DNA of 63,393 nt, taken from assembly GCA_046565595.1 (NCBI GenBank), contig JBKHYG010000017.1, positions 1-63,393 on the forward strand, given 5' to 3'. This DNA comes from Actinomycetota bacterium. GTDB lineage: Bacteria; Actinomycetota; AC-67. The translations under genes were made by a program, and so were the position numbers. A model generated the notes under the pieces. The model was not told the DNA's origin, ran no database searches, and was given only the letters and a program-made list of their open reading frames with translations. How positions within the stretch are numbered: the stretch's first letter is position 1; each line of letters starts with the position of its first letter. Below are positions 13,512 to 50,971 of the stretch, piece by piece.

Positions 13512-14554
13512 AACACCTCACCGGGATCAAGCCGGGCGAGACGCGCGAGGAAGTTGCCGCTGATGAAAGTGTTGCCGCCGTCGATCGAGAAGACCTCCTG
13601 GATCGACCAACCGCCATACTGGGTCGCCATCCAGAAACTCCCGATCAACGAGACCTCGACATCACCGGTGATCTCGATGCTCGTGTTGAAACGCCAGGCC
13701 TGCGCCATCTGGTCACAGACGAAGACATTCTGTGGCTGCGCGACGATCACGCTCGTCGAGATGGTGGAGCTAGGCGGCGCAAGGGGAAGCTGCTGGCCTT
13801 CGACTTCCACATCGTTAGCTGCACGGTTGGGCTGAGTCGAGTCGGTCCTTTGGCCGGCACCCAGTGGGAAGCTGGCCAGTTTGAGACCACCGGTCTCGGC
13901 GTTGGCAGGTATGAACACGCGCGACTGTGTCTTATCGGCGGCCAGCGGGATCCGGATGCTTCGCAGGTAGATGCCAGCGACCTCGGCGTTCGAGGATTCC
14001 GCGTTCTCTGAAGCCTGCGACGGATAGATGATCGTGTACTCCATCGTCACGCCGTGACCTTCGTCGATCACCGTGTAGAAGAAGGAGTTCGTGCTCTCGT
14101 TGTCGCGCCGGACACCGACCCGCTTGTAGTCGTAGCCAGACTTCGACGGCTCGCCCGCGTAGTTGCCCTGATAGAAGGTCGGATACTGGCCGCGTCGAGG
14201 CCAGTTCCCTCCCCGCTCTGGGTCGTCAGGGTCGAAGGGACCAGGCCTGACCGAAGGAGGCGCCTGACCGTCGCGTGGCGAGTTCGTCTGCACGCCCGGG
14301 CAGAACGGGGTAGGCGGCGGCGGGGGTGGCGGCGGCGGAAGTGGAGGCGGCTCGTCCGGCGGGATGAAGATGTTCGGCGGAGGCGGGGGAGGAAGCGGCG
14401 GAGGCTCCAAGAGCTCCTCGACATCCACACCGAAGGCGAGGTCCACGGCGACCTTGCCGATGCTGACATCGGCCTTGGGCGCGAGGTTCGCGCAGGAGCT
14501 CACCGCGAAGGCGAGAGCCAGGACCGAAGCGAGATAGTTACGCGACCACTTCAT
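13508..14554 (-). CDS. lipoprotein with long poly-proline tracts, function unknown
   Basis: Signal/lipobox 'MKWSRNYLASVLALAFAVSSC'. Tracts 'PPPLPPPPPPN..PPPLPPPPPPPPPTP' are followed by a ~250-aa beta-rich domain. It overlaps the upstream gene by 17 nt and the downstream gene by 4 nt. It does not resemble a Peripla_BP_6 binding protein. Confidence 0.7.
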   Translation of the reverse strand: MKWSRNYLASVLALAFAVSSCANLAPKADVSIGKVAVDLAFGVDVEELLEPPPLPPPPPPNIFIPPDEPPPLPPPPPPPPPTPFCPGVQTNSPRDGQAPPSVRPGPFDPDDPERGGNWPRRGQYPTFYQGNYAGEPSKSGYDYKRVGVRRDNESTNSFFYTVIDEGHGVTMEYTIIYPSQASENAESSNAEVAGIYLRSIRIPLAADKTQSRVFIPANAETGGLKLASFPLGAGQRTDSTQPNRAANDVEVEGQQLPLAPPSSTISTSVIVAQPQNVFVCDQMAQAWRFNTSIEITGDVEVSLIGSFWMATQYGGWSIQEVFSIDGGNTFISGNFLARLARLDPGEVL

Positions 14555-20197: not shown

Positions 20198-21628
20198 TCA
20201 GGCCCGGATGGTCTCGTAGGGAGCGACCACCAAGGTGCGGCGATCCTTGGTTCCGCCCAGGGCGAAGACCCGACGGCTCGAGCCGTTGGTCAGGTCTCCC
20301 TCCAGGAGGTTGCCTTCCGGGTTGGCGACGACCTCGAGCTGATAGAAGCCGTTCGGCAGGTCGGTGACATCGAAGGCCTGGCCGAACTGCCCCTGGTGGT
20401 AGGTGTCTCCCCAACCCACGGGCAGGGTCTCGCGGATCGCCACGCTCTCAGGACCTCCGCAGCGGCTGTAGCCGAGTTCACCGGGACGCCAGTTGGCTCC
20501 AGGGACGGTGACGTCCTGAGCATCGGTCGGAGCTAGGCAGAACGACTGCTTGCCGGAGGTCAGCGTGTGCACGCCGTCCGCGTCCAACAGCCTGTATTCG
20601 GCGAAGTCGGTGAAATGCCAGTGGTAGTGGGTCGGATCGTCGTGGAAGATCATCTCCCCGACCTCTTGGGTTCCGATGCGGACCCCGTCGCGGAAGAACG
20701 CCTGATAGGCCCGCATGGTCTCTTCGCCATCTTCCCTGAACGCGTCCACGACCAGAGGAGCGGGACCGGCGTTCCACACCGTCGCGTTGAAGGCGACCAG
20801 GGTCCGACCGAACTCGCGTCGCAGGCCGATGTTCCAGGCCGGCAGGGAGCGCAGGTCAGGCAGCGTCGCCGGGTCGAGATCGGAGGGAGCGCCATCAGGT
20901 CCGTCCGGGACGACCTCGGGCCCACGATCGTCGATCGGGCGGGGCTTACCCGGTCCGGGGCCGCCCCAGTTGGCCTCGTTGATGGTCATCGGATAGCTCA
21001 TCACCTGCGGGGGCAGGCCGAGAGCATCCCGCCAGGGCTTCGTGATCCAGATCCGTACCGCATACGACTGCCTAGCCGGCAGCGGGGCGGTCAACGAGAG
21101 ATAGGGGCTCGCGATCCAGCCTTTCTCGATGCCCCAGACCTGACCTTGCGTGAAGGGGTTGCCGTAGCAGCCGGAATCCGGGTATATCGCCTGGTCAGAG
21201 GCCTCAGCGGTGGCAGGGAAGCGGTCGTATCCCGACGGACAGAAGGACCTTCGGACGCTAGCCAGGGTTCGGCCAGCCCCGTCGACGACCTCCATCCGGA
21301 AGAAGCCGTAGAAGGCCCCGCCCCGCCATCCGCGGATGAGTCCGGCGGGCAGGACGACATCCCCGCTCGGACGCCTCCAAGTGGCGACGATGGGCTCGTC
21401 ATACTTGGGCCTCTGAACGAGGATCTCGAAGTTCTCTCGGTCTGCCTGGACCATGACCGTCGGCGAGATCCAGACCTTTCCGGTCTGCGAGTCGCGCCAG
21501 GCGTCTACGGTCTTGGAACCTCCTCTGAGGCGAAGGGTGGGTGCTTCTTCAGCCTGCGCGCTCGTCGTTCCAACGACCGGGAGCATGCTGAAAGCGGCGA
21601 CGATCGCCGCGAGTCTCGAACGAGACAT
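20198..21628 (-). CDS. secreted lysyl-oxidase-like copper amine oxidase
   Basis: Start at 'MSRSRLAAIVAAFSMLPVVGTTSAQA' (ATG 21628, SD AGGAGGAAC). The C-terminal domain aligns by eye to the LOX catalytic domain: 'THYHWH' (HxHxH Cu site), 'SGKQSFCLAPTD' (LTQ Lys), 'GWGDTYHQGQFGQAFDVTDLPNGFYQLEVVANP' (LTQ Tyr). Confidence 0.8.
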   Translation of the reverse strand: MSRSRLAAIVAAFSMLPVVGTTSAQAEEAPTLRLRGGSKTVDAWRDSQTGKVWISPTVMVQADRENFEILVQRPKYDEPIVATWRRPSGDVVLPAGLIRGWRGGAFYGFFRMEVVDGAGRTLASVRRSFCPSGYDRFPATAEASDQAIYPDSGCYGNPFTQGQVWGIEKGWIASPYLSLTAPLPARQSYAVRIWITKPWRDALGLPPQVMSYPMTINEANWGGPGPGKPRPIDDRGPEVVPDGPDGAPSDLDPATLPDLRSLPAWNIGLRREFGRTLVAFNATVWNAGPAPLVVDAFREDGEETMRAYQAFFRDGVRIGTQEVGEMIFHDDPTHYHWHFTDFAEYRLLDADGVHTLTSGKQSFCLAPTDAQDVTVPGANWRPGELGYSRCGGPESVAIRETLPVGWGDTYHQGQFGQAFDVTDLPNGFYQLEVVANPEGNLLEGDLTNGSSRRVFALGGTKDRRTLVVAPYETIRA

Positions 21629-21747
21629 CGTTCCTCCTGGTGAACCGCGGGGGCCAGCGCTGATCGTCGACCCTCTCGCGTCTGCTAACCGTTCAGACAC
21701 CGGCCGAGCGCTTCCGGTTCCACCGGACGGGAACTCATCCCATGCGA

Positions 21748-21776
21748 GAGGGCTGCCCGCTCGGCGGACAGCCCTC
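21748..21776 (-). terminator. possible hairpin terminator after glnK
   Basis: Imperfect stem gagggctgcccgc/gcggacagccctc (one mismatch) with a 3-nt loop, 28 nt downstream of the glnK stop. There is no U-tract. Confidence 0.35.
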
Positions 21777-21803
21777 AAGATCTCCGTTCGGACGGTCAGT
21801 AGG

Positions 21804-36335: not shown

Positions 36336-36464
36336 ATCGGCAGGTCAACCATGCATCGAGTCATCGCGCCAGCCTATAACGGGCGCACCACGCGCCCACC
36401 GTCTTTCACACAAGGTTCACGTGTACTCCACCGAGGTCCAGGGCCAGCACCGTACCTTTGCTGC

Positions 36465-37166
36465 GTGACATCGGACCCAGTGCAGCCGAGGGTACTCATC
36501 GTCGAGGATGAAGTGACGATCGCGGACGCGATCCGCTACGCACTGGACCGCCATGGGTTCAGATGCGAGGTGGTCCATGATGGCCGGTCGGCTCTAGCCA
36601 GCGCGCGAGCGTCGTCTCCCGACCTCGTGCTCCTCGATCTCATGCTGCCCGGCCTTGACGGCAATGACGTCTGCCGAGAACTTCGTAAGACGTCTACCGC
36701 AGCGGTCATGGTCATCAGCGCCCGCGACTCTGAAGCGGACAAGGTGCTGGCTCTTGAACTGGGAGCTGATGACTATCTGACCAAACCCTTCGGTACAGCG
36801 GAGCTGATCGCTAGGGCTCGTGCACTGTTGAGACGGCAGAACCCCGTCGGAGATAGGACCATCGAGACGACGCTAGAAGCGGGCCCCATCGCCATGGATG
36901 TGGACAGACACGAGGCCTCGGTGCGGGGCGAACCCCTCGACCTCCCCCTGAAGGAGTTCGTCCTGCTCGAGGTCCTCGTGCGAAGAGCTGGCAGGCTCTG
37001 CTTGAGGGAACACCTCATCTCAGATGTATGGGGCCCCGATTACTTCGGGGACACCCGAACCCTCGATGTTCACATCAAGAGACTGCGAGAGAAGATCGAA
37101 GAGGACAAGCGGGAGCCCCGGCACCTGCTCACCGTTAGAGGACTCGGGTACAAGTTCCAACCGTGA
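36465..37166 (+). CDS. OmpR/PhoB-family response regulator (no adjacent kinase)
   Basis: Receiver 'RVLIVEDEV..DLVLLDLMLPGLDG..DDYLTKPF' plus winged-helix 'TLDVHIKRLREKIE..LLTVRGLGYKF'. Start is GTG 36465 (or GTG 36480). The ORF from 36351 has an implausible leader. Confidence 0.9.
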   Translation: MTSDPVQPRVLIVEDEVTIADAIRYALDRHGFRCEVVHDGRSALASARASSPDLVLLDLMLPGLDGNDVCRELRKTSTAAVMVISARDSEADKVLALELGADDYLTKPFGTAELIARARALLRRQNPVGDRTIETTLEAGPIAMDVDRHEASVRGEPLDLPLKEFVLLEVLVRRAGRLCLREHLISDVWGPDYFGDTRTLDVHIKRLREKIEEDKREPRHLLTVRGLGYKFQP

Positions 37167-37225: not shown

Positions 37226-39220
37226 TCAGACGACCGCCGGCCGAGGCTTGCCGTTACGCGATCTCGAAGAGTCTCCTCTTACCTTGCTCTCTGGCTCAGC
37301 TCTGACTGAATCGATAAGGGCATCCAACTCAGGACCGGTCAGCGTTTCCCGTTCGAGCAGTGATCCGACGATGGCGTCGACGACCTTCGAGTTCCGAGCA
37401 AGTATCGCCATGGCCCGTCGTTCTGCCCCCTCGATCAACGCGCGGATCTCCTCGTCGACGATCTCCATCAGAGAGGCCGAAAGGTTTCCCATCTGGGCGA
37501 GCTCCTTGCCCAGGAACACCTCGCCGCCCTTCCGGCCGACCGAGACACGACCCACCCGATCGCTCATCCCGTAGATCGTAACCATCTCGCGCGCGAGATC
37601 TGTCGCTGTCTGGAGATCCTGCTGACTGCCCGTCGAAAGTTCTCCGAGTCTGAGCAACTCGATCGCAGTGCCACCGAGGTGCGCAACCAATTGGCGTTCC
37701 ATCTCGGTCCGCTTCAAGATCATCCGATCAGCGAGCCGGTAGGCCGTCGTGTGCCCCAACGATCGTCCCCGGGCGACGATGGATATCTTGTTCACCGCCG
37801 GAAGCACACCTACTCCCGCAGCTGCGACCGCATGGCCGGCTTCGTGCAGTGCGACCAGATGCCGTTCCACTTCGGTCAAGATGTGGCTCCTCCGCTGAGG
37901 GCCCGCAAGGACACGATCGATGGCCTCTTCGAGGTCACGCTGTTCGATCGTCGAGCGCCGCTCACGAACCGCGAGAAGAGCTGCCTCGTTCACCAGGTTA
38001 GCTAGATCTGCCCCCGTGAACCCAGGGGTCTGGTGGGCGATCCTGCGAAGATCGACCACCCCCAGTGGTCGCTTAGTCGCGTACAGCGAAAGGATCTCAG
38101 CCCTTCCGTCCACATCGGGGACATCCACCACGACGCGCCGGTCGAAACGACCTGGTCGAAGGAGCGCCGGATCGAGGATGTCAGGTCGGTTGGTTGCCGC
38201 GAGGATCACGATGCCGCTCGAAACGCTGAAGCCATCCATCTCGACGAGCATCTGATTCAGCGTCTGCTCGCGCTCATCGTTCCCCTGACCCACCCCTGCT
38301 CCGCGAGCGCGGCCGGCAGCGTCCAGCTCATCGATGAAGATGATCGCGGGAGCTGCTTCGCGTGCCTGGCGGAAGAGATCACGCACCCGAGCTGCTCCCA
38401 CTCCGACCAGTGATTCGACGAACTCCGAACCGGAGAGACTGAAGAATGGAACGGCAGCTTCTCCAGCGACCGCCCGCGCAAGCAGGGTCTTCCCTGTACC
38501 CGGAGGGCCCGCCAGCAGGACGCCCTTGGGGGCGAGTGCACCAACCTCCTCGAAGCGTCCTGGATCCTTGAGGTAGTCGACCACCTCGCCCAGCTCGGTC
38601 TTGGCTTCAGGGTTCCCCGCCACATCGTCGAAAGTGATACCGCCTGGGCGATCCTCCTTGCGCCCGCTGAATCGGGAAAAACCTAGGAACTCAGCGCCCT
38701 GACCTCCACGATTCATCACCATGAAGAACAAGCCGAACATCGAGGCGAGGATCACGAGAGGCAACAGGAACTGGGCGATGAAACGCGTTCGGCCCTTGCC
38801 CGATTGATGGTCGATCTCGACTCGAGCTCCTGTCGAGATCATGCGGTCTATCAGGTTTGCGGTCTCAGCATCCGAGCGCGGATAGGCGGTCCAGAAGGTA
38901 TTCCCATCCTGGGTAACCAGACCGACCCTGGCGTCTTCGTCGTAGAAGGTAGCTGCGACGACAGCACCAGGCCGCATCGTCCTCTCAAGCTGGTCGTAGG
39001 TGAGTGGGCGACCCGGCGCCGCGGGTTGGATGCGATCCAGCAGGACGAAATAGAGGACGAAGAGCGCGATCACCATCGCGACCAACCCCAGGATAGGTCT
39101 CCCTAAGGCCAAGACTGATCCGATCGCACGCTTGAGCGGGTCAGGGAGTCGATGCGGATCCAATGCTTCCTTCACACGCGTTCGCATATCGGGGACATCC
39201 CCTCGGGTTCCGTGGGACAT
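37226..39220 (-). CDS. ftsH: ATP-dependent zinc metalloprotease FtsH (divergent paralogue-like)
   Basis: Two TM helices. Walker A '[18 protein letters not shown]', Walker B 'IIFIDELDA', SRH '[20 protein letters not shown]', zinc site 'HEAGHA'. SD AGGAGA lies inside the upstream gene, and the start is 2 nt after the upstream TAA. Confidence 0.93.
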
Positions 39221-39222
39221 GT

Positions 39223-42200
39223 TTATCTCCTGGTCTCTGTCGTTAGAGGTCGCGGGATCGACATCACCGGACCTGCGTGCAAGCGTCGGCGCCTAGCCAT
39301 GACTGCCCCTCCAGTCCAGGCCAGAACCGCGAGAGCTAGGACGAACGCCATCGGCCCGACCGACGAGCTTTCGCTACGGCGCGCAGTGAAGTTGGCCCTC
39401 TCACTCGCCGCCTCGTGTTCTTCCTGCTTGGAACCCGTTCCTCCACCTGGAGGTGCAGGGGCAGGATTGATCGGCGGAGGGGCAACCGCCGCGACCACCG
39501 CCGTTTCCGGGACCCGGCCGTGCTTGATCGGCGGCCTCGTGTCTTCACCCTGAAGTTCACCGGTTCGTAGCTGCGGCGGATCCGGTGCGAGCACGCTAGG
39601 AAGTACGCGGACCCCCTCGGGCGAGCACGGCCCTGCTCCGCCGATAACCTCGACCGGGAGTTCAGCCCGATGGGTTCCGGTCTCCAAGGCGACCGTCACA
39701 CGGCCGGGCCGGAAGGCACACAGCAGTCCGCTGGTCGTACTAGGGACCAAAGAGCCTTCGAGCCGCAAGGGACTACCCGGATCGGCCGGATCCCGCTCGA
39801 CGAAATCCGCGATCGTCCGATCGCTAGAGACGAACCTGTGGTCCGGGACCAAGACATCCGACGGCCTGCACCGTTCATCAACCCCAGGTGTTTCGAGAAG
39901 GCCGCAAGGACGCTTGAACGGGAAGCGCACATGGAGAGCGTTCGCCTGATCCGTATCTGGTGACTGCAGCGCGTTCACCCCTCCCACATCCGGAAGGCGT
40001 CCAAGACCCAGCACATCCGACGCCTGTCCCGTTCTCAGGACCCGTCCCGCCGCAAGATCTATCGCGAGGTCGCGCAAGATGGGTATCGCCTGCAACTTGG
40101 TCGCGCCACCCATGACGGTGACCCTCAGCCAAGCGTGGTACGCGCCGTGTTGCGGCCTGTATCGCTCTCGCAGAGGGGACCCCCCCGTCCCTGCGGCAAC
40201 CATGGGGATCCCACCCGCACCAGCACCACCAACCCAGCCGACCAGGTTGCGTGCGTCGATGCCACCGGCGACGAAAGCTCGAGCACCTGCCTGCAAGATG
40301 GGCGTGATCGTTCCCGCATCCGCACGAGATGAATGGGGCAACACGATGGGATCATGGGCGACGACTACGACGGGCACCCCCTGGGCGCCAGATATCGCTA
40401 ACACCGATCCCAGCCAAGCGTCCTGCCTCTCGGGCGGATTCTGAGACGTAACGTCGAGGGCTAGGTTCTGCGAAGTGTCGAGTACCGCAACCCTCACGGT
40501 AGAGCCGGGTTCTCCGATGTCGAACGCGTAGTGGGTTCGAGCCCCAGGCTCCGGCTGAGCGGCTCCAGGCACGCTGACCCTGCGCACCCCTTCTGGCAAT
40601 GGTCCGGTTCCCCAGGGGGCAGGAGCCTTTGCATACACCTCGCGGAAGAAGCTGTTGGAGGCTGTGAGATCTGACTCTGTAAGGGGACCCGACGAGGCCA
40701 AACCAGGACGCAGATCTAGGGGTCCGAGAGCTCCATAGACCGGCACCGACAGGGACGAGAACAGATCGCGCACCGGGGCTAGCTCGTCAGGGATACCGAT
40801 CCGCCGCTGGTTCCCACCGTGGACCACTACCTCGATATCGCCGTTCTGGGCCGCAAGGTCCATCTCGCGGAGAGCTTGTGTGAGGACCACATCCGCGCGA
40901 GTGTCGATCCCCAAGGTTGGGCCGCACGAGATCCCGGTGCAAGCAGAATCGCTGACGAACCCGAACGAGGTCCCACCAAGTCTCGGCAGTTCGACGGTCC
41001 GATGCATGGGTGAGGGCTCCGGATCGCCCGATAGATCTACCCGCCAAACGCTCATGCTGGGCGGACCGCGGCGGTGACCTTCTCCGTTGTCCGCAGAGGC
41101 CGGAAACCCCCCGACCGCCCACCCACTTCCGCGTGCATCGAGCACCGCATCATGGATCGGGTCAGCGGGCGCAGGAGCATCGAAGACTGCCGAAACACTG
41201 CGTCGATAATCGTGACGAACATCCATCCAGCCGTCGGGGCCTCCGGCCATCAGACCGCCCCAAGCCTGGGCCAGCCTGCCGCCTCGCGCATACGTCTCCC
41301 CTACCCCCGTGACCGCGATGACCTGGTCGCCCGACGGGACCAGCGAGGTCACCGTGGCCGATAGCGCTGCTAACCCTCTGTGACTCCAATCGCCGTCCGC
41401 ATCCCTGACCAACATGAGCCCGCCAGTCCCGGCCGCAACGAGCCGCCCATCCGGAGCCAACGCCAGCGCCTGGAAGGAGTTCTCCTCGGCAACAGGTCCG
41501 AGATCCTGCACCTGCTGCCATCGTCCTCCTCGACGCTCTAGGAGAGTGCCTTGGCTACCGGCCGCGACCGGCATCCCGTCAGCTGTGACGCTCACTGCAC
41601 GAAGGGTCGCCTCCGTCCCAGAGCTATCGACTCGCCAGATCCCCCGGTCCAGGCGCAAGATGGTCCCAGCCTCACCGACGGCGAAACCGTTGCGAGGGTC
41701 CATCAGATGGAGCGCCAACAAGCCTCGATCGGTCATGGATGAGGCTCGGTGATCGACGACTATCCCGGCTGGATCGATCCGCAGGACAGTACCTCCCGCC
41801 CCTACTGCATATCCCTCTGCTCCGTAGAGATCAACATCCCTCAGATGCTCCCGGGTAGGAGTCGGCAAGCTGGTGACGCCGATCAGAGGATCGAGCCGAA
41901 CCAGTGTGCCGTTCTCGCCCACGGCGATACCTACCCCATCGGTATCCATGTCGACCGCAGTGAGCGGTTCGGTGACCACCGAAGGCCACCTCTCCAGGAC
42001 AGGTCGAGGCGGGTCGTCCGTGTACCGGCCGACCAGTCGATCCGTCGCCTGAAGATCCCGGATCGGGGTCACGCCCTCGAACGGGGTTACCCAACCATCG
42101 CGCAGGGAAGAGAAGCCAACACGCTGAACGAAACCGACAGGACTTGGCAACCTTCTCCAGGATCCCCCATCGAAGGAGAACAAGCCGGTTCCTCCGGCAA

Positions 42201-43281
42201 CGACTCCTCCAGGAACCGCATCGAGATCTACGAGGAACCCAGCGGTGAAAGGCATCCTCCGGTCGCAGATCTCGATCGCTTCCGCATCCTGCTGAGAGGC
42301 GCGATACTGCGCTGGACAATGAGAGGTGACTACTTCGTCACGGATCTGCAGCACGAAGGGTCGCTCAGCGCCACCGCCGATCAGGCGCTGGGGGTCTACC
42401 GGCTGGATGAAGCCCGCGATCCAGATGGTCCCATCCTGGACATCTACCGACATCCCTCTGGCGAGTCGGTTTGCCGTTGATGGGTCGGCAGTGGGAGCCG
42501 GCGGGACATCGAACATCGGCAGGCCGGTAGGAGTCAGCGTCCAGGTTCCGTTCTCCCTACGCATGACCACCAGCCGGCTGGGATTGCCCGAATATCCGAC
42601 CGCGACCGCGCGATCGCGATCTATAACCGCTACATCCATGAGGGTCGGCACCGCCGCGTTGTCCGCGCTGCTCAGTCCTGGCGTTTCAGCCGTCCACGCT
42701 CCACGGTCAAGGCGATAGATCGTGGCGCGCGCACCAACCGCATAGCCGAACGCACCCAAGCCATCCGAGGAGATGGATGCGCCATTCAACGGCGAGGTCG
42801 TACGGAATGAGGTTTCGACCCACGATCCCGAACTGGTCCGCCTGATGAACCCTCCGAACTTCGGAGCCGCCCAGGCCTCTCCGTTGGGCGCCGCCGAGAG
42901 AGCGGCCAGTGACGGACCGAATGGCTTGCCCGTTAGATCAGAGATCGGAGACCCCTCGACCTTCCAGCCGCTCGAGCGTTCCCAACGCAGGAAAGAGATG
43001 TCAGAGGCCACGGTTCCGTAGGCATGACCGACGGCGTAGGCGATGCTCCCGCCGGTACCAGGAACCGGAACGATCTCGGATACGGGGACCGGTGGAGCCT
43101 CGGGAAGCATGACGACTTCGGGATCGAGCTCCAGACCACCCTGGCCGACCCGAGATCCGGCTTGAACCGGTCCTATGGCCGCCAGGATGATCAAGAACAA
43201 CATCCCGTGGCGACGGCCGAACCCGGTCCCGGGGGATGTCCCCCGGGACCGGATACGACGAGGCTGTCTACTGAGAAGCAC
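39223..43281 (-). CDS. very large (up to 1352 aa) membrane-anchored extracytoplasmic protein with beta-propeller-type repeats
   Basis: N-terminal hydrophobic segment 'MLFLIILAAIGPV'. Recurrent 'GxxGT(I/V/L)LR(L/I)D'-type blades (ENGTLVRLDP, AGGTVLRIDP, EAGTILRLDRG, SQGTLLERRGG, ARATIYRLDRG). Pro-rich stalk and C-terminal TM 'VGPMAFVLALAVLAWTGGAVMARRRR'. Start is GTG 43281 or ATG 43203. Confidence 0.75.
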   Translation of the reverse strand: MLLSRQPRRIRSRGTSPGTGFGRRHGMLFLIILAAIGPVQAGSRVGQGGLELDPEVVMLPEAPPVPVSEIVPVPGTGGSIAYAVGHAYGTVASDISFLRWERSSGWKVEGSPISDLTGKPFGPSLAALSAAPNGEAWAAPKFGGFIRRTSSGSWVETSFRTTSPLNGASISSDGLGAFGYAVGARATIYRLDRGAWTAETPGLSSADNAAVPTLMDVAVIDRDRAVAVGYSGNPSRLVVMRRENGTWTLTPTGLPMFDVPPAPTADPSTANRLARGMSVDVQDGTIWIAGFIQPVDPQRLIGGGAERPFVLQIRDEVVTSHCPAQYRASQQDAEAIEICDRRMPFTAGFLVDLDAVPGGVVAGGTGLFSFDGGSWRRLPSPVGFVQRVGFSSLRDGWVTPFEGVTPIRDLQATDRLVGRYTDDPPRPVLERWPSVVTEPLTAVDMDTDGVGIAVGENGTLVRLDPLIGVTSLPTPTREHLRDVDLYGAEGYAVGAGGTVLRIDPAGIVVDHRASSMTDRGLLALHLMDPRNGFAVGEAGTILRLDRGIWRVDSSGTEATLRAVSVTADGMPVAAGSQGTLLERRGGRWQQVQDLGPVAEENSFQALALAPDGRLVAAGTGGLMLVRDADGDWSHRGLAALSATVTSLVPSGDQVIAVTGVGETYARGGRLAQAWGGLMAGGPDGWMDVRHDYRRSVSAVFDAPAPADPIHDAVLDARGSGWAVGGFPASADNGEGHRRGPPSMSVWRVDLSGDPEPSPMHRTVELPRLGGTSFGFVSDSACTGISCGPTLGIDTRADVVLTQALREMDLAAQNGDIEVVVHGGNQRRIGIPDELAPVRDLFSSLSVPVYGALGPLDLRPGLASSGPLTESDLTASNSFFREVYAKAPAPWGTGPLPEGVRRVSVPGAAQPEPGARTHYAFDIGEPGSTVRVAVLDTSQNLALDVTSQNPPERQDAWLGSVLAISGAQGVPVVVVAHDPIVLPHSSRADAGTITPILQAGARAFVAGGIDARNLVGWVGGAGAGGIPMVAAGTGGSPLRERYRPQHGAYHAWLRVTVMGGATKLQAIPILRDLAIDLAAGRVLRTGQASDVLGLGRLPDVGGVNALQSPDTDQANALHVRFPFKRPCGLLETPGVDERCRPSDVLVPDHRFVSSDRTIADFVERDPADPGSPLRLEGSLVPSTTSGLLCAFRPGRVTVALETGTHRAELPVEVIGGAGPCSPEGVRVLPSVLAPDPPQLRTGELQGEDTRPPIKHGRVPETAVVAAVAPPPINPAPAPPGGGTGSKQEEHEAASERANFTARRSESSSVGPMAFVLALAVLAWTGGAVMARRRRLHAGPVMSIPRPLTTETRR
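43225..43250 (-). other. strong intercistronic/5'-proximal RNA hairpin between the PstS-like gene and the large-protein gene
   Basis: ggtcccggggga-tg-tcccccgggacc, with perfect 12-nt arms. It lies between the PstS-like stop (43288) and the ATG at 43203. Confidence 0.4.
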
Positions 43282-43287
43282 CAGAGA

Positions 43288-44526
43288 TCAGGCGTACACC
43301 AGCGAGAGCAGACCAGCGCGTGCAACCTGCAGAACCGAGACCGGCAACGCGGCGTAGCCGTTCTGACCGAGCTTGGTCTGGGTCGAGTCTCGCAGCAACA
43401 CATCGAGATAGTCGACCAAGGTCTGGGCCTTCCCAGGCGTCGCAGTCCCTCCACCGAATGCGCTCAGGAGATTGTTGTAGACGAGCGCGTAGGTCATGGT
43501 GCAGATCGGGTACGCACCGGGAGCCAGACCGTCGGTGATCGACACCGCATCCCAACCGGGGCTGAGAGTGCTGGCTGGGTGGGTCATCCCGACCGTGGCA
43601 GCCTCGCATCGAGCAGACAGACCCGAGTTGGGACTCAGGAACTCACCGGCCGGGTTATCGACGCGCGCCCAGTCCAAGATCCCGTGAGGAGAAGAGCTCC
43701 CCCCAGCTGCTCGGACCCTGGAGGCCTCCGCCAGCTCGACGTACCCGATGGCGCCGGGGATCGTGTCGACCAGGTTCGCGACACCATCGTTCTTCTTCTT
43801 CCGAACGAGCGTCCCTCCGAGATCCTCGATGGGCCAGGCGGTGTTGAACTGGTTCTGCTTGTAGACCTGGAACTGTGGGTTGCGCTTGGACAGGAAGTCC
43901 TTGAACGCATAGGTGGTCCCAGAGACATCTTCGCGGACTGCGACCGTGATAGGAAGCCCACAGTTCGACAGCTTCGACCTGATGCCATCGCTCTGATCCT
44001 GACCGATCAGTCCATCATTCCAGTCCGTGATGATCCCACTGAAGATCGATCCGATGACCTGCGAACGGAGGTTGAGCTCCACGAGACCGTTAGTACCTGC
44101 CCCGATGCCGCAGTCCTCGAGATTCACCGAGACGGTGATGGCCCCAAGGCCGATAGGGATGTGGTGAGACGGACTGACGCGCCCCGCACCGGAATCGGCG
44201 TCTAGGGCACCGGCCATCTGTTCATCGAAGGAGAGTGGTTCGTCGGAGCCTGCATACAGGTAGCTGTGATCGGCGTAAGCAGCCTTGCCCGCACCGGAAC
44301 CGCCACCCAGGTACTTGAAGGTTCCCTTGCCACACGCCTTGTTGAACTCGGGTATCCCTACCTTGTCGTGAAGGTTCTGTGCGAAGGATGCGCCTACCCC
44401 TTCGACGAAGCCGCCCGATGTGCAGAAGCCTGGCATCAGCGGGGACTCGGCTAGACCGTTCCCTGCCCCAGTGACCAAGGTCAGCGATGTGAGTGCTAGC
44501 ACCGCCCCGAAACGACGTATCAGCAT
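43288..44526 (-). CDS. PstS-family (PBP_like_2) phosphate-binding-protein paralogue, secreted
   Basis: Signal 'MLIRRFGAVLALTSLTLVTGAGNGLA'. 'KYLGGGSGAGKAAY..YAGSDEPLS' and 'GAIGYVELAEA' match actinobacterial PstS-type binding proteins. It is separate from the pstSCAB operon. Confidence 0.8.
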   Translation of the reverse strand: MLIRRFGAVLALTSLTLVTGAGNGLAESPLMPGFCTSGGFVEGVGASFAQNLHDKVGIPEFNKACGKGTFKYLGGGSGAGKAAYADHSYLYAGSDEPLSFDEQMAGALDADSGAGRVSPSHHIPIGLGAITVSVNLEDCGIGAGTNGLVELNLRSQVIGSIFSGIITDWNDGLIGQDQSDGIRSKLSNCGLPITVAVREDVSGTTYAFKDFLSKRNPQFQVYKQNQFNTAWPIEDLGGTLVRKKKNDGVANLVDTIPGAIGYVELAEASRVRAAGGSSSPHGILDWARVDNPAGEFLSPNSGLSARCEAATVGMTHPASTLSPGWDAVSITDGLAPGAYPICTMTYALVYNNLLSAFGGGTATPGKAQTLVDYLDVLLRDSTQTKLGQNGYAALPVSVLQVARAGLLSLVYA

Positions 44527-44626
44527 GTTCGTCCTCCTAGCGTCCCGCGTGGGACCTTCTTCCGACGCCCTGTCTCTCAGCGCGTCGCAAGGGACGGTAG
44601 GAGAGCTGTCGGACGCTCAGGCATCT

Positions 44627-44648
44627 AGGAGGTGAACGAGTGATGAAC
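44627..44648 (-). promoter_or_regulatory. candidate PHO box (two 11-nt direct repeat units) upstream of the PstS-like gene
   Basis: The minus strand reads GTTCATCactc GTTCACCtcct, about 100 nt upstream of the ATG at 44526. It matches the GTTCACC-type 11-nt repeat units bound by actinobacterial PhoP-type regulators. Confidence 0.5.
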
Positions 44649-44695: not shown

Positions 44696-45355
44696 TCAGG
44701 CGAAGTCGGCGATCTCTCCGGTAACGAGGAACACGACCTGCTCGGCGACATCGACCGCGTGATCGCCGACCCGTTCGATCTGCCTACTGACGACATGCAT
44801 CCGGATACCCCACTCGAGCATCCTCTTGTCATCCCCGACCCGCAGGACCTCGTCGAGCATCCCGCGATTGAGCTTGTCGATCGGCTCGTCCATCCGAGGC
44901 AGTTCCCTAGCGAGTTCGACATCGCGCCGCGCGAAGGCGTCCATCGCAGCCCCGATCATCTTGAGCGCGATCGTGCCCATCTCCTCCAAGGTATCCCGCA
45001 CCGTGGGTGCCTGGGGAAGTCCCGAAGCCACACGAGCGATCTTGGCGAGATTGACGCTCATGTCCCCGATGCGCTCGAGGTGGGTGTTGATATGCAGGAG
45101 TGCGGTCAGCAACCGTAGGTCACTAGCGACCGGCGCCTGGAGGGCGAACAGGTTCGTGATCCGCTGTTCGTTGCGCTGGTAGTACTCGTCGATGACATCG
45201 TCACCATCGATGACACGCGCGCAGAGTTCCACATCATCCTTGACCACCGCTCGCAGCGATCGTGCGAACAGGTCTTGGGCAGCCGCACCCATGGCCTGAC
45301 AGTGGGCCTCAACCCGCCGCAGCTCGTCGTGGAACTGGTGACGCGACTCGCTCAC
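44696..45355 (-). CDS. phoU: phosphate signalling complex protein PhoU
   Basis: GTG 45355 overlaps the pstB stop (GTGA). 219 aa with two PhoU repeats containing '[12 protein letters not shown]' and '[12 protein letters not shown]'. Confidence 0.9.
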
Positions 45356-46230
45356 CCGAATCTCCCCGTGATGTAGTCCTCGGTCCGGGAGTCGCTCGGA
45401 TTGGTGAAGATCTTCCGTGTGACATCGAACTCGACCAACACACCGCACCTTGCCGAACCATCCTCGTTCACTTGGGCTGTGAGGAACGCGGTGCGATCGC
45501 TGACGCGCGCCGCCTGTTGCATGTTGTGGGTGACGATGATGATCGTGTACTCGTGCTTGAGCTCGACCATCAGGTCCTCGATCCGCGCCGTGGCGATGGG
45601 ATCGAGGGCAGAGCAGGGTTCGTCCATCAGGATGACATCAGGCCGGACGGCTATCGCCCTTGCGATGCAGAGCCTCTGCTGTTGCCCGCCCGACATCGCA
45701 AGAGCTGATCGATCCAGATCGTTGCGGACCTCTTCCCATAGTGCCGCTCGCTTGAGCGCCTCCTCGACCCGATCGTCAAGGGAGTCGGTCATCCCGTTCA
45801 CCCGCAGTCCGAAAGCGACGTTCTCGTAGATAGATTTCGGGAATGGATTCGGTTTCTGGAAGACCATGCCTATGCGACGACGAACCTCAACTGGATCCAC
45901 ACCCGCCCCATAGAGGTCGGCGCCGCGATAGCGAACGGTGCCGCTCAATGAGGCCGACGGGATGAGGTCGTTCATCCGGTTGAAGCTGCGTATAAGGGTG
46001 GATTTGCCGCAACCCGACGGACCGATGAGGGCGGTGATCTCGTTGGACGCGATCTGAAGGTTCACATCGCGTACGGCGGGGTTCCCGTCGTAGGCGATCT
46101 CCAGATCCTCTACCTCGAAGATGATCTGGCGTTCCTCACGGATCTGTATGTCTTCCGAGCTCTGCTCGGCCTCAGTCATCAGCGTCCTAAGTTCAGTCGT
46201 TCGGAGCCGCGGCTCCGTCTTGGTGCGCAT
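45352..46230 (-). CDS. pstB: phosphate ABC transporter ATP-binding protein PstB
   Basis: '[22 protein letters not shown]', '[14 protein letters not shown]' and '[12 protein letters not shown]'. The start could be the internal ATG at 46179. Confidence 0.95.
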
Positions 46231-46234
46231 GTTT

Positions 46235-47116
46235 CTACCACCTCTGCTCGAATCGATTCCTTAGCCAGACCGCCGTGGCGTTCATCGCTAGGAGCACGAC
46301 GAGTAGCACCACGATGCCTGCCGCCGCGGTCACGGCGAACTCAGACTGGGGACGACTCGTCCAATTGAAGACCTGGATCGGCAGGGCTGTGAACCGATCG
46401 AGGAATCCGGAGGGAACGAAGGTCACATAGGTGAGCGCACCCATGGTGATGAGCGGGGCTGTTTCACCCAGCGCTCGAGATATCGCAAGGATGATGCCCG
46501 TCATGAATCCAGGAAGAGCAGCTGGAACGACCTGACGGCTCACCGCCTTCCATCTCGTGGCCCCGAGGGCAAGCGCGGCCTCATTGATGCTAGGTGGAAC
46601 CGCTCGGAGGGCCTCCCGCCCTGCGATCGTGATGACCGGTAAGACCAGCAAGCCGAGGGTCAGGCCCCCAGCCAGCACACTGCGGCCCATGGCCATGAGT
46701 CGCACGAACACTGCAAGCCCGAGGAGACCGTAGATGACGCTCGGGATACCGGCCAGGTTGGCGATATTGACCTCGATGAAGCGGTTCAGCCGACCTGGTC
46801 CGGCGTATTCCTCGAGATATATCGCCGCTCCCATCCCGACGGGGATCGCGAAGGCTCCGCAGATGGCGATGATCCAGAGGCTGCCGAAGATCGCAGGTTT
46901 GGCTCCGGCTTTCTCGGGGAAACGCGAGGGGAGGCCGGTTAGGAAATCCGAGGACACGCGCGGAAGGCCGACTCGGAACACATCGATCAGCAGCATGAGG
47001 AGTGCGATGAGCGTGAGTGCCAACGCAAGCCACATGATCACCAGAAAGGTGTTCTCTCGGCGTACCCTTCGGGCGCGGTCGCTGCTCGCGCGCAGATCCT
47101 CGACCCGTACGGTCAT
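46235..47116 (-). CDS. pstA: phosphate ABC transporter permease PstA
   Basis: 293 aa with six TM segments and the EAA-like loop '[13 protein letters not shown]'. It occupies the pstA position (third gene) in pstSCAB. Confidence 0.93.
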
Positions 47117-48045
47117 TCGTACCGCTCCCTATAGCGATTCGCGATCCGGTTGCTGAAGGCATTCAGGGTGAAGGTCATGACGAACAGCGTGGTGGCAACC
47201 GCGAAGATGGTCTTGTAGGCCGTAGAACCGTAGGGTGTGTCACCGAGCGAAACCTGGACGATGAACGCGGTCATCGTTTGGATCCCCTTCAGGGGATCGA
47301 AGCTCAGTTGAGGCTGGTTGCCCGCCGCGATCGCGACGATCATCGTCTCACCGATCGCGCGTGCTAGACCCAACACGACGCTGGCGACGATCCCCGACAC
47401 CGCCGCCGGGAAGACGACCTTGAGAGCGACCGTTCGCCTCGGGGCCCCGAGCCCGTAGGCCGCTTCACGAAGGCCACGGGGGACTGCGCGCATGGCATCC
47501 TCGGACAGACTCGCGATCGTTGGGACGATCATCAGCCCAACGACAAGACCCGCCGAAAGCGCATTGAATGTCTCGATACCAGGGATGAACCGCTTCAGGA
47601 CCACCTGGGTTACGAAGTGCAGGGCGAAGAATCCCAGGACGACGGTCGGTAGCCCTGCGAGCACCTCGAGGAACGGCTTGAGGATCCTGCGGACTCGTAC
47701 CGGGGCATATTCCGACAGGTAGACCGCCACCAATAGGCCTAGGGGTACCGCGGTGAGGATGCCGATACCAGCGACCATCAGCGTGCCGTTGATGAGCGGC
47801 CACACTCCGAAGGCCGCATTACTACCGAAGGTCGGCGCCCAGCTGGTTGAGCCGAAGAATTCCCCGAAACTTACCTCCCGGAAGAACCCTACGGTTTCAC
47901 CGAACAGCGTGAAGACGATCCCGAAGGTCGTGAGCACAGTGACACCCGCGCAGAGTCGCAAGAGGAACTCAAGGGCTCCTTCTCCACGCCGACGGCGCCC
48001 CCGCAGATCGGGGGCGCCGTCGGAGTGAGAGATGATCTGGTTCAC
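47113..48045 (-). CDS. pstC: phosphate ABC transporter permease PstC
   Basis: 310 aa with '[22 protein letters not shown]' and '[10 protein letters not shown]'. It overlaps pstS and pstA by 4 nt each. Confidence 0.93.
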
Positions 48046-48980
48046 GCGTTGATGGCGGCTTCGAGTTCGGCCATGTCCTCGGCAATCGTAGCCTCGTCGA
48101 CGGGCGTATAGCCAACGTCGCCCACCAGGTCATCGGCGTGCTCGATGTAGAAGCGAACGAAGGCTTCGACCTCGGGTTTCGCCAGTGCGGCGTGCTTCAC
48201 ATAGATGAAGAGCGGACGGGCCAACGGGGAGTAGGAACCGTCCCGAACGGACTCGTCGCTAGGTTCGACACAACCGTTGCCACCGTCCACAGCCACCAGC
48301 TTGAGCTTGTCGGAGTTTTCCGCGAAGTAGGCGAAGCCGAAGTACGCCAGGGCAGACTTGTCTCCCGAGACTCCGGTCACGAGGGTGTTGTCATCCTCGG
48401 AAGCGGTGTAGTCGCTGCGGCTGGCCCCCTCCTCACCGTTGATCTCGTCGGTGAAGTAGTCGAAGGTTCCAGAATCGGTCCCGGGACCGAACAGTTTGAG
48501 CGGCTGGTCGGGGAAGCCTGGACGAATCTGGTTCCAGTTGCTCACCTTGCTGCCGGGAGCCCAGATCTGGCTCAGTTCGGCGGTCGTCAGGCAGTCCACC
48601 CAGTCGTTCGCTGGATTGACCACAACGGCCAGCCCGTCCAACGCCACCGTGAGCTCAGTGAACTCGATCCCCGCCGCGGCACAATTCGCTGCCTCTGAGT
48701 CCTTGATCGGACGGGAAGCATTGCTGATGTCCGTTTCACCACCGCAGAACTTCTCGAAGCCCCCACCCGTACCGGAGACCCCGACGGTGATCTGGACATT
48801 GGGATGTTCGACGCGGAACTCTTCTGCTACGGCTTCGGTCACGGGGAAGACGGTTGAGGAGCCGTCCGCTTGGATGGAGCCCGCAAGCTCATTGCCGCCA
48901 CTAGACCCGCCGCTCGACGCACAGGCAGTTAGGCCCAGGGCGGTTGCGAGGATCATGCCCGCGGTCTTGGTGAGATTCAT
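48042..48980 (-). CDS. pstS: phosphate ABC transporter substrate-binding lipoprotein PstS
   Basis: Lipobox 'ALGLTAC'. '[20 protein letters not shown]', '[13 protein letters not shown]' and 'SNASRPI' are typical of the PstS family (PBP_like_2). Confidence 0.9.
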
Positions 48981-49034: not shown

Positions 49035-49067
49035 GGCCGGTGTACGGGCCGTGAACCCTCTGTGAAC
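49035..49067 (-). promoter_or_regulatory. candidate PHO box: three tandem 11-nt direct repeat units upstream of pstS
   Basis: The minus strand reads GTTCACagagg GTTCACggccc GTACACcggcc, 55-87 nt upstream of the pstS ATG (48980). It lies in the pstS / response-regulator divergent region. Confidence 0.55.
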
Positions 49068-49103
49068 TTCCTCCCGGGGGCTGGCATCTGGCTCCGATCC
49101 CTG

Positions 49104-49125
49104 TCAGAGTGAAACCATCATGAAC
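49104..49125 (-). promoter_or_regulatory. second, weaker PHO-like repeat pair next to the response-regulator start
   Basis: The minus strand reads GTTCATgatgg TTTCACtctga (11-nt spacing), 12-33 nt upstream of the regulator ATG at 49137 on the opposite strand. Confidence 0.35.
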
Positions 49126-49136
49126 TCCAAGGTCAG

Positions 49137-49844
49137 ATGGCGCGCGTACTGATCGTCGAGGACGATGCCACCATGGCCGAGATGGTTGCGTACAACCTCC
49201 GGCGCCAGGGCATCGACGCCGAGGTGCACTCGGATGGACAGGCTGGCTTGAAGGCCGCACGGAAGAAGGACATCGGGTGCATAGTCCTCGACCTCATGCT
49301 GCCTGGGCTAGACGGGATCCGCCTCGCAACCGAGATACGGAGTCAGCGAGCAGATGTACCGATCATCATGCTCACCGCCAGGAGCGAGGAAGAGACGAAA
49401 CTCCGCGGCTTCGCAGCGGGAGTGGATGACTACCTGACCAAGCCCTTCAGCATGGACGAACTCGTCGCACGCGTGAAGGCTCTACTCCGTCGGAGCCGGG
49501 TGGAGGCTGTGAGGCAGGTCGCGCCAGACGAGCTGGTCTTCGGCGATCTGCGGATCAACCCTCGAGACTTCCTCTGTTGGCTTCGTGACGAAGAGGTCGA
49601 GCTTCGACCGAAGGAACTCTCTCTGCTGGCAACACTCGCCTCCGAACCAGGCCGGCTCTTCAGCAGGATCGAGCTCGCTGAGCTCGTCTGGGGTTACTCC
49701 TACCTGGGCGACACACGCACGATCGATACTCATGTCAAGAACATCAGACGGAAGATCGAAGACGCCAGCGACTACACCTACATCGAGACCGTACGCGGGA
49801 TCGGCTATCGGTTCCGTGTACGACCGAGAGGGTCTGACACTTGA
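49137..49844 (+). CDS. OmpR/PhoB-family response regulator (phosphate regulon type, RegX3/PhoP/PhoR-like)
   Basis: 'RVLIVEDD..CIVLDLMLPGLDG..DDYLTKPF' plus winged helix 'TIDTHVKNIRRKIE..IETVRGIGYRF'. It is divergent from pstS and overlaps the kinase gene by 4 nt. Confidence 0.93.
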   Translation: MARVLIVEDDATMAEMVAYNLRRQGIDAEVHSDGQAGLKAARKKDIGCIVLDLMLPGLDGIRLATEIRSQRADVPIIMLTARSEEETKLRGFAAGVDDYLTKPFSMDELVARVKALLRRSRVEAVRQVAPDELVFGDLRINPRDFLCWLRDEEVELRPKELSLLATLASEPGRLFSRIELAELVWGYSYLGDTRTIDTHVKNIRRKIEDASDYTYIETVRGIGYRFRVRPRGSDT

Positions 49845-50971
49845 GTGCCGAGGGTGCTGCCCTGGTCGCAGCGATCCTCGTGCTCGCAGCGGCGCTGATC
49901 GTAGCCCTCGCCATGGTGAAGACCATGGGTCGCCGCATCCGAGAACTCGAGGAGGACCGCAGCAGAGCACACCGGACCGCCGAGGACGCGGCCGAGTCCT
50001 CCTCGATCGCAGCCCAAGAAGCTCTCAGGTTCGGACGCATACTCTCCGCGATGCCCGATGGAGTGCTGCTCTTCACGGACGATCGAGTGAGATACGCGAA
50101 CCCAGCTGCGATCACATTGCTAGGTGGGGATCCGGTCAGACTGTTACCGCATGTGCGGTCGGCAGAGGGGTCCTTCGACATCCAGGTTCATCATCCCGTT
50201 TACCGAGACATCCAATGTCTGGTCACCGATCTGGATGCTCGAACTACGCTAGTGGTGGCCCGGGATGTCACGGATAGCCGGCGCGTAGATCGGATGCGTC
50301 AGGATTTCGTCGCGAACGCCTCTCACGAGCTGAAGACTCCTGTAGCAACCATCCTTGCGGCCGCTGAGACCCTCGCCACCGCGATCCAGGATGACCCGGA
50401 GACCGCCGAACGATTCACCCATGCCCTCGTTCGCGAAGCATCGCGTCTGTCGCGGATGGTCCAGGATCTCCTCGACCTCGCACGCCTTGATGACCCGCTT
50501 CCGGGTGATGAGTCGGCGGATCTCTCCAAGGCGACACAAGACGTGGTGACTCGATATCGCACCCTCGGCCGAGATCGCGACCTGGCTGTCGACCCATCCA
50601 TCGAGCACGGGCTCAGGGTTGCGCACCGAGAGCACGATGTTCGCGTCGCACTCTCGAATCTGCTGGACAACGCCTTCCGATACACCCCGAGTGGAGGCCG
50701 CATCACGGTCAGACTCCGCCGTGAGGGAGAGGTGGCGGTCTTAGAGGTCGCCGACGATGGCGAAGGTATACCGGCCAAGGATCTTCCCCGGATCTTCGAG
50801 CGCTTCTACCGGGTAGACCGTGCGCGTGCACGAGAAACCGGCGGTACAGGCCTCGGATTGGCGATCGTCAAACACATCGCGGAGCAGGCGGGCGGCACGG
50901 TGTCTGCCGACAGTGTCCTAGGCGAAGGAGCGACCTTCACCCTCCGGATCCCGATCCTGCCGGGAACCTGA
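49841..50971 (+). CDS. sensor histidine kinase (SenX3/PhoR-like)
   Basis: One N-terminal TM and a PAS-like segment. H-box 'NASHELKTPVATI', N-box 'NLLDNAFRYTP', G-boxes 'DDGEGIP' and 'GGTGLGLAIVKH'. Confidence 0.9.
   Translation: MSAEGAALVAAILVLAAALIVALAMVKTMGRRIRELEEDRSRAHRTAEDAAESSSIAAQEALRFGRILSAMPDGVLLFTDDRVRYANPAAITLLGGDPVRLLPHVRSAEGSFDIQVHHPVYRDIQCLVTDLDARTTLVVARDVTDSRRVDRMRQDFVANASHELKTPVATILAAAETLATAIQDDPETAERFTHALVREASRLSRMVQDLLDLARLDDPLPGDESADLSKATQDVVTRYRTLGRDRDLAVDPSIEHGLRVAHREHDVRVALSNLLDNAFRYTPSGGRITVRLRREGEVAVLEVADDGEGIPAKDLPRIFERFYRVDRARARETGGTGLGLAIVKHIAEQAGGTVSADSVLGEGATFTLRIPILPGT

Follow-up and report, generated by a model that had tools for sequence, protein, structure and literature searches.

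In Mycobacterium tuberculosis, pstS1, pstS2 and pstS3 cluster with pknD, the sensor domain of which is a beta-propeller. Another point of reference is the membrane protease FtsH, encoded by one gene in most bacteria (PMC9020784) and described with partners in several systems, among them HflK/HflC in Escherichia coli, Ycf48 with FtsH2/3 in photosystem II repair of cyanobacteria, and the accessory FtsH2 of Pseudomonas aeruginosa clone C (PMC9020784; PMC10850787). Features of both are brought together on a 63,393-nucleotide (nt) stretch of DNA from an Actinomycetota bacterium (GenBank assembly GCA_046565595.1, contig JBKHYG010000017.1; GTDB lineage AC-67), which was analysed whole and is hereafter called the window. 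Three adjacent genes on its minus strand encode a PstS-like binding protein, a giant tail-anchored ectoprotein and an FtsH, and this triad is a conserved unit, not a chance neighbourhood. The parts belong to familiar types of protein. Their fixed partnership is previously undescribed, as are the family to which the giant protein belongs, the unit at its C-terminus and a superclade of FtsH proteins with leucine in the pore loop. The original prediction, made by a model from the sequence alone, knew of no account of such a module, and none was found in the literature searched, which covered FtsH with PstS, phosphate starvation, Actinobacteria, Thermoleophilia, paralogues and gene neighbourhood.

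The M. tuberculosis pst locus resembles the present one in its extra PstS-family binder without a permease of its own beside pstSCAB-phoU, in a membrane protein with an extracytoplasmic propeller, and in the Pho-type control expected in both. However, the partner found here is tail-anchored, exceeds 1,300 residues, has no kinase and carries an apparently dead phosphoesterase domain; a third member, FtsH, is obligatory, and the PstS-like subfamily is about 33% identical to ordinary PstS. With the partnered FtsH systems the locus would share a membrane AAA+ protease influenced by a large partner that lies on the non-cytoplasmic side, specialised paralogues beside a general FtsH, and substrates engaged through a tail of about 20 residues. 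It is unlike them in having Leu in place of the pore-loop Phe and in a pairing that is genomically fixed with a phosphate binder. Moreover, the giant protein has no SPFH (Band 7) domain by Pfam, unlike HflK/HflC, and its similarity to Ycf48 is confined to the propeller repeats.

Linkage of the three genes across genomes

Co-localisation in related genomes had been named in the original prediction as a test of the module, and the triad passed it strongly. Every metagenome contig with a relative of the giant protein (9/9) also carries an FtsH and a protein with the PBP_like_2 domain, in at least four gene orders. A scan of species-representative genomes gave 166 loci, the best 80 of which were kept; the loci are mostly from Solirubrobacterales and other Thermoleophilia, the closest being metagenome-assembled genomes (MAGs) labelled 'Actinomycetota bacterium' or 'Microthrixaceae'. 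Flanks were searched by tblastn and with a hidden Markov model of the PstS-like subfamily. Fifty-nine loci had 5 kb or more of sequence on each side; FtsH was detected in 57 of these, the PstS-like protein in 58 and both partners in 56 (about 95%). The stop codon of the giant gene and the start codon of ftsH overlap or lie 2 nt apart.

The order of the genes varies considerably. The binding-protein gene, the giant gene and ftsH follow one another in L001, L004/5, L006, L007 and L009, whereas L002 and L092 have ftsH, a small gene, the giant gene and the binding-protein gene; in L003, ftsH is divergent from the giant gene, a small gene and the binding-protein gene, and in L010, ftsH, a gene for 596 residues and the giant gene are followed by two phosphoesterase genes. 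In Solirubrobacterales, the order is a PstS-like gene (650-750 residues, with insertions), ftsH, a gene for about 580 residues, the giant gene, a gene for 262 residues and genes for a zinc-ribbon protein and a PF04185 phosphoesterase; phosphoesterases of both PF04185 and PF01663 occur in distant versions of the cluster. Because the accessory genes between ftsH and the giant gene are not homologous across lineages by BLASTP, the unit has no fourth universal member. That the linkage persists through such rearrangement, among proteins 26-45% identical, argues strongly for a functional unit.

It could be argued that a single housekeeping ftsH merely happens to adjoin phosphate genes, given that one ftsH is the bacterial norm, that this FtsH passes its equivalog cut-off with all catalytic motifs present, and that no second ftsH was found in the rest of the 63-kb window. 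This explanation is close to refuted and is left with next to no weight. Linkage to FtsH holds in 57/59 of the well-flanked loci and outlasts changes of gene order, the giant-gene stop is coupled to the ftsH start, a related genome carries a pair of ftsH genes separated by 11 kb, Solirubrobacterales sequences occur in at least three FtsH clades, and housekeeping neighbours are absent from five sampled contexts. A single ftsH per genome would allow a housekeeping role, but not an accidental linkage.

In the window, the minus strand reads pstS, pstC, pstA, pstB, phoU, PstS-like gene, giant open reading frame (ORF) and ftsH (Table 1). The architecture given in the original prediction was recovered to the nucleotide: a 169-nt spacer with two GTTCAY-type 11-nt repeats between the end of phoU (44696) and the PstS-like ATG (44526), three tightly linked genes, a gap of 6 or 84 nt with a hairpin after the first of them, and 2 nt from the TAA of the giant gene to the ATG of ftsH, whose GGAG Shine-Dalgarno sequence lies within the giant ORF.

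Table 1. Coordinates of the triad, its predicted elements and its neighbours in the window
Feature	Position	Strand	Remarks
ftsH	37226..39220	-	664 residues; TIGR01241
Giant tail-anchored ectoprotein gene	39223..43281	-	1352 residues from GTG 43281 or 1326 residues from ATG 43203
PstS-like gene	43288..44526	-	412 residues, ATG at 44526; PF12849
C-terminal anchor unit of giant protein	39226..39429	-	acidic motif SKQEEHEAASERA, predicted transmembrane helix MAFVLALAVLAWTGGAVMA, 23-residue Arg-rich cytoplasmic tail
Ig-like beta-sandwich region (predicted)	39634..39936	-	residues ~1090-1190; conserved (invariant) Cys
Degenerate calcineurin-like metallophosphoesterase domain (predicted)	40009..40971	-	residues ~745-1065
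N-terminal ectodomain with putative Ycf48/HCF136-like beta-propeller repeats	41134..43116	-	residues ~30-690, numbered from ATG 43203
Perfect GC-rich hairpin, 15 bp	43216..43259 (core 43221-43254)	-	after PstS-like stop
PHO-box-like site	44648-44627	-	two 11-nt direct repeat units GTTCATCACTC GTTCACCTCCT; 101-122 nt upstream of PstS-like ATG
Canonical operon pstS-pstC-pstA-pstB-phoU	44696..48980	-	directly upstream of triad; context and likely transporter partner, not a triad member
phoU	44696-45448	-	last gene of pst operon
pstS, canonical	48042-48980	-	first gene of pst operon
Tandem PHO units	49035..49067	-	three 11-nt units GTTCACAGAGG GTTCACGGCCC GTACACCGGCC; upstream of canonical pstS; internal motif reference
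PhoP/PhoR-like two-component pair	49137..50971	+	divergent from pstS; kinase best matches PnpS and PhoR, both below cut-offs
Orphan OmpR-family response regulator	36351-37166 (as listed ORF)	+	convergent with ftsH; true start probably GTG 36480
PHO-like pair	36404-36420		TTTCACACAAGGTTCAC; ~60 nt upstream of the orphan regulator's probable start GTG 36480

Scans of the window for tRNAs and Rfam families gave no matches, and a promoter/terminator consensus scan gave nothing useful. Elsewhere in the window, a single minus-strand ORF of 1,081 residues (8233-11478) combines an MFS_1 transporter domain with two ATP-binding cassette (ABC) ATPase domains and is either an unusual fusion or over-extended from its TTG start. 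Two further minus-strand features are unrelated to the triad, namely a cluster with a transglutaminase-core protein and a DUF58 protein (13508-18271) and a lysyl-oxidase-like protein (20198-21778).

Domains of the giant ectoprotein

The giant protein has no match in Pfam or NCBIfam. The original prediction took it for a giant beta-propeller protein, which probably holds for its N-terminal repeats; the C-terminal 500 residues, however, appear to hold a degenerate metallophosphoesterase domain, Ig-like domains and a transmembrane anchor. From the N-terminus, the order is signal peptide, putative propeller repeats, metallophosphoesterase fold, Ig-like domains, proline-rich stalk and anchor unit. 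The putative propeller repeats are recognised through the family profile, which matches HCF136 among PDB sequences at E = 1.5e-8 over only ~70-130 positions, and Ycf48 at 1e-4; PF14870 is faint or below its cut-off in members of the family. For the Ig-like region, the predicted structure was matched by Foldseek to the S-layer protein SbsC and to the Big domains of LigA.

An exhaustive profile search returned 580 representative relatives, 232 of them at E < 1e-30, nearly all 1,300-2,500 residues long and matched near the C-terminus. An earlier impression of a tiny family, based on three full-length matches in a word-indexed search, was an artefact of sensitivity. A transmembrane helix with a basic tail is present in 97 of the 105 full-length representatives, the sequence running for a median of 25 residues beyond a 17-residue transmembrane core, and the acidic-motif pattern is also matched in 55 of the 105. 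Two giant-protein paralogues lie on different contigs in each of two MAGs (L017 and L019 in MAG113; L014 and L021 in swi_bin.332). A gene for a PMT_2 protein mannosyltransferase stands beside the phosphoesterase gene of a Solirubrobacterales cluster (L028, 16118-17806), and glycosylation of the giant protein's proline-rich stalk is conceivable.

The metallophosphoesterase region was modelled with AlphaFold2 from 32 sequences (predicted local distance difference test, pLDDT, 79; predicted template-modelling score, pTM, 0.84); this model supersedes one from five sequences that was poor (pLDDT 49) and gave weak fold matches. The model adopts the four-layer alpha/beta sandwich of calcineurin-like metallophosphoesterases. 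Foldseek places it closest to SMPDL3A (9e-9), purple acid phosphatase (1.5e-8) and GpdQ (~1e-8; TM-score 0.66), with probability 1.0, and further matches are Lmo2642 (~1e-8) and Mre11, the latter also at probability 1.0; among PDB sequences, the family profile finds SMPDL3B at 6e-5. Fold, strand order and the YxFD, LDxS and QxxWL landmarks are thus predicted to be common to the giant protein and to SMPDL3A/B, purple acid phosphatase and GpdQ, but its two-metal site is not conserved and its domain is embedded in an anchored giant. None of the five metal-ligand motifs (DxH, GDxxDR, GNH[DE], H and GHxH) is conserved in the window protein or in the family consensus; the window protein reads DSA, GGN at the GD position, GPLD at the GNHD position and AHD, and has no GHxH. 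Because these ligands are lost in protein and family alike, the domain is probably a binding domain, or pseudoenzyme, and not an enzyme. That the giant protein would instead be an active surface phosphoesterase, hydrolysing organic phosphate for the PstS-like protein to collect, with FtsH incidental, is suggested by the resemblance to secreted phosphoesterases (SMPDL3A/B, purple acid phosphatase, GpdQ) and by the phosphate-related context. It is very unlikely in view of the missing metal ligands and the failure of Pfam Metallophos to match, and it would leave the near-universal linkage to FtsH unexplained.

The FtsH superclade and its envelope partners

The window FtsH scores 674 bits against a TIGR01241 equivalog cut-off of 600 and has the AAA, AAA_lid_3 and Peptidase_M41 domains, with Walker A/B, the arginines of the second region of homology (SRH) and the zinc site HEAGHA all intact. 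Two predicted transmembrane helices, seen as hydrophobic segments at residues 32-50 and 146-164, flank a small external domain. Divergence had been predicted in this N-terminal and periplasmic region and was not upheld: the region matches Pfam FtsH_ext (30.6 bits vs a cut-off of 25.5) and aligns with relatives. The real peculiarity is the pore-1 loop, which reads ESLVGVG where the aligned Thermotoga maritima FtsH has ELFVGVG. In sequences taken from the 120 closest database relatives and the FtsHs encoded at the loci, Leu occupies the Phe position in 136/136 cases (135 with ESLVGVG, one with EALVGIG). Substrate is bound by the pore residue Phe of the FVG motif, and degradation cannot begin without a tail of ~20 residues (PMC9020784).

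Distance trees place the window-type FtsHs and a 'P0176' group in one clade and the FtsHs of Solirubrobacterales clusters in a separate, deep one; Solirubrobacterales are also represented in two further clades. In a Solirubrobacteraceae MAG contig (L083), the two ftsH genes 11 kb apart (~3.7-5.7 kb and ~16.7-18.4 kb) are one of the cluster type and one that is its deep-branching relative. The P0176 clade (720-800 residues, 'Acidimicrobiales') was considered as the canonical housekeeping FtsH and rejected, its context being module-linked as well. Five superclade contexts (P0176, P0247, P0167, P0178 and L010-type) were sampled, and none has the housekeeping hpt/folE neighbourhood; four of the five adjoin giant envelope proteins. 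In P0176, ftsH is followed by a gene for 227 residues, the giant gene and the binding-protein gene, and in P0247 a giant-family protein of 2,373 residues is encoded near ftsH. In P0167 (L093, 10001-17045), a sister-clade ftsH precedes the gene for a 1,677-residue NHL-repeat protein, which is without a phosphoesterase domain and ends in the same acidic motif, transmembrane helix and Arg-rich tail. The P0178 context (L091, 1622-12248) comprises genes for a 1,564-residue protein with an SLT (lytic-transglycosylase) domain, a 563-residue protein, FtsH and a PF01663 phosphodiesterase, with a gene for an extracytoplasmic function (ECF) sigma factor nearby. Taken together, these findings suggest that accessory FtsH paralogues have radiated, each with a giant envelope protein as its partner.

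What such a paralogue does to its partner can be read in more than one way. The LPXTG/sortase, PEP-CTERM/exosortase and GlyGly-CTERM/rhombosortase systems likewise involve large surface proteins whose extreme C-terminus is made up of a motif, a transmembrane helix and a basic cluster, and a co-encoded membrane protease. The giant protein differs from them in its motif and its much longer tail, and the co-encoded enzyme is an ATP-dependent protease; no NCBIfam or Pfam sorting domain matches it, and no sortase-like gene was found in the loci. The acidic motif, helix and Arg-rich tail could nevertheless form the recognition signal of a new C-terminal sorting or processing system, in which the dedicated FtsH would pull the tail, remove the anchor and stall at the proline-rich stalk or the folded ectodomain, so that the giant protein is matured or released into the wall. 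This is distinctly unlikely, even though the tripartite unit is family-wide and recurs on the unrelated NHL giant beside a sister FtsH, each of at least three FtsH clades is paired with a giant-family partner of its own, the pore loop is altered across the whole superclade, and no known CTERM sorting model matches. Against it, both the tail (20-35 residues) and the spacing between motif and helix exceed those of known sorting signals; moreover, FtsH is known as a degrader, for which site-limited processing is exceptional, and the large neighbour in the P0178-type cluster is without such a signal.

A bolder and still quite unlikely version is that the Leu-pore paralogues in general recognise the tripartite signal (acidic EE-x-EA helix, transmembrane helix and Arg-rich tail of 20-35 residues) and process or sort giant proteins with it, a system here wired to phosphate starvation through the PstS-like protein as co-receptor. 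If true, Leu-pore FtsH and tripartite signal would be an ATP-driven counterpart of sortase/exosortase logic.

Phosphate link and proposed role of the module

The PstS-like protein matches PF12849 (PBP_like_2, a type II periplasmic binding fold) at E = 3e-23, and its top sequence matches in the PDB are PstS chains. It remains below the PstS equivalog TIGR00975, with 158.9 bits vs a cut-off of 205, and belongs to a subfamily of ~23 clusters that are 45-60% identical, with a sharp fall to the value given above for ordinary PstS. The phosphate ligands of E. coli PstS (T10, S38, D56, R135, S139, G140 and T141) have aligned counterparts in the motifs GAS/TF, GSG, SDEPL and R-D-SGTT, which are kept in all 23 members of the subfamily. 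Thus the protein most likely binds phosphate, to judge by its motifs. A signal peptide and no lipobox can be read from its sequence. The original prediction stressed that no permease or ATPase genes accompany this paralogue, which is true within the triad; the canonical pstSCAB-phoU operon nevertheless lies directly upstream on the same strand in the window, and is absent near the module in L007. The neighbouring PstCAB may be the recipient of the bound phosphate.

GTTCACC is the core of the Streptomyces PHO box. Boxes built from 11-nt direct repeat units have been described for Streptomyces PhoP (PMC7866108). The putative sites of the window likewise precede pstS and other Pho genes as direct repeats of 11 nt built on a GTTCAY core; they differ in being known from sequence, in the two units only of the triad site, and in belonging to a distant uncultured actinobacterium. 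Exact GTTCAY-N5-GTTCAY occurs twice in the 63 kb, in the triad spacer and upstream of canonical pstS (49067-49051). When one mismatch is allowed there are six sites vs 0.67 expected, a number reached in 0/100 shuffles, and five of the six lie in three promoter regions, those of pstS/regulator, the triad and the orphan regulator. The density of PHO-like sites is 0.49 per kb in upstream regions vs 0.04 per kb overall, and in the window, L001, L004, L006 and L012 coding-strand repeats precede the PstS-like start, at -91 to -123. The pstS/regulator intergenic region (49035-49125, minus strand) holds a further imperfect pair besides its three tandem units and is richer than the two-unit site of the triad. 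Altogether, the phosphate link is real at the level of sequence, and the motif suggests that transcription of the triad would be phosphate-responsive. The regulator acting on the repeats is most likely the PhoR/PhoP-like pair, with the orphan regulator beside ftsH as second candidate; a regulator occupies the same relative position as this orphan in L004/L011, L006 and L009.

The hairpin after the PstS-like stop codon has a predicted folding energy of -51 kcal/mol over 96 nt (z = -3.3). A perfect GC hairpin of 12-17 bp is found there in 8/8 window-type loci (the window, L001, L004, L006, L007, L012, L014 and L015), whether the position is coding or not. Its position is conserved and its sequence is not; in some loci it occupies what is probably the beginning of the giant coding sequence, and in others it is clearly intergenic. 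In the window, the start of the giant gene is ambiguous. With ATG 43203, the database gene call, the gap from the PstS-like stop is 84 nt and the hairpin is intercistronic; with GTG 43281, the gap is 6 nt and the hairpin lies within codons 8-22. The idea that the hairpin proves the ATG start was dropped: five loci have a start codon 0-9 nt past the PstS-like stop and a frame that stays open through the hairpin, and GTG 43281 supplies the Arg-rich n-region typical of a signal peptide. By analogy with pstS-pstC of Streptomyces (PMC7866108), the structure probably keeps the PstS-like binding protein in excess.

These elements could be parts of a phosphate-sensing device, in which the PstS-like protein and the giant ectodomain would report external phosphate and turn FtsH on or off against some other regulatory target, for instance a membrane regulator, PhoU or an anti-sigma factor; regulated proteolysis, and not scavenging, would be the output. 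Such a device would find a ligand sensor in the non-catalytic phosphoesterase-like domain. It would also accommodate a PstS-like protein that has no permease to itself, an orphan response regulator that has a PHO-like site and shows synteny with the module at several loci, the ECF sigma factor genes near two related clusters and the zinc-ribbon membrane protein of the Solirubrobacterales cluster. It is rather unlikely all the same. No candidate target is conserved and co-encoded across lineages, the accessory genes being mutually non-homologous; sister FtsH clades pair with giant proteins in contexts not obviously related to phosphate; and the true phosphoesterases of distant clusters point to scavenging.

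The reading preferred here, for which the chances appear about even, is a Pho-controlled surface phosphate-capture complex with a giant anchor handled by a dedicated FtsH. Under phosphate scarcity, a PhoP-type regulator would bind the two 11-nt repeats ~110 nt upstream and turn the operon on, and the hairpin after the first gene would leave the binding protein in excess over the products of the downstream genes. The giant protein would be exported and held by its C-terminal helix, its propellers and non-catalytic phosphoesterase-like domain serving as a platform that may bind phosphorylated material and/or the PstS-like protein, and captured phosphate would pass to the neighbouring PstCAB transporter. 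The co-translated FtsH hexamer would engage the anchor unit of the giant protein (acidic motif, transmembrane helix and Arg-rich tail of ~23 residues) and control the quality and abundance of the giant protein by clearing stalled or surplus copies. The role of FtsH would be tied to this partner and not to phosphate itself; a client-directed role is preferred over phosphate signalling because the partners of sister clades are other giant proteins and the loci encode no conserved regulatory target. Of the phosphate-induced envelope module first proposed, the conserved unit and its link to phosphate are retained, while 'envelope remodelling' has no direct support.

Several points weigh against this capture complex. 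Every mechanistic step in it, whether expression, binding or proteolysis, is one that we infer. The PstS-like protein may bind something other than orthophosphate, because of its score below the PstS equivalog cut-off and its insertions. The pore-loop Leu could mean a weaker grip on substrate and not a specialised one, and if this FtsH is the sole one of the cell, its role cannot be limited to the giant partner. Three loci (L019, L060 and L072) have a PstS-like partner but no FtsH within the flanks. GTTCAY repeats are absent in L007 and in the Solirubrobacterales loci, so the motif supports Pho control for the subclade of the window only, and this control may be lineage-specific; in distant clusters, the link to phosphate is suggested by the phosphoesterases co-encoded there.

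FtsH is usually regarded as a single, general housekeeping protease, whereas here a whole superclade has an altered substrate-gripping loop, and its genes are fixed beside those of giant envelope proteins. The bacteria concerned are soil Actinomycetota of Solirubrobacterales and Acidimicrobiia-like lineages, abundant but mostly uncultured. A protein family of at least 580 cluster representatives, for which Pfam and NCBIfam have no model, is now named, mapped into domains and tied to phosphate acquisition. The module offers a tractable system for studying how a membrane AAA+ protease becomes dedicated to one client, and may reveal the way in which phosphorus is captured at the surface of these cells.

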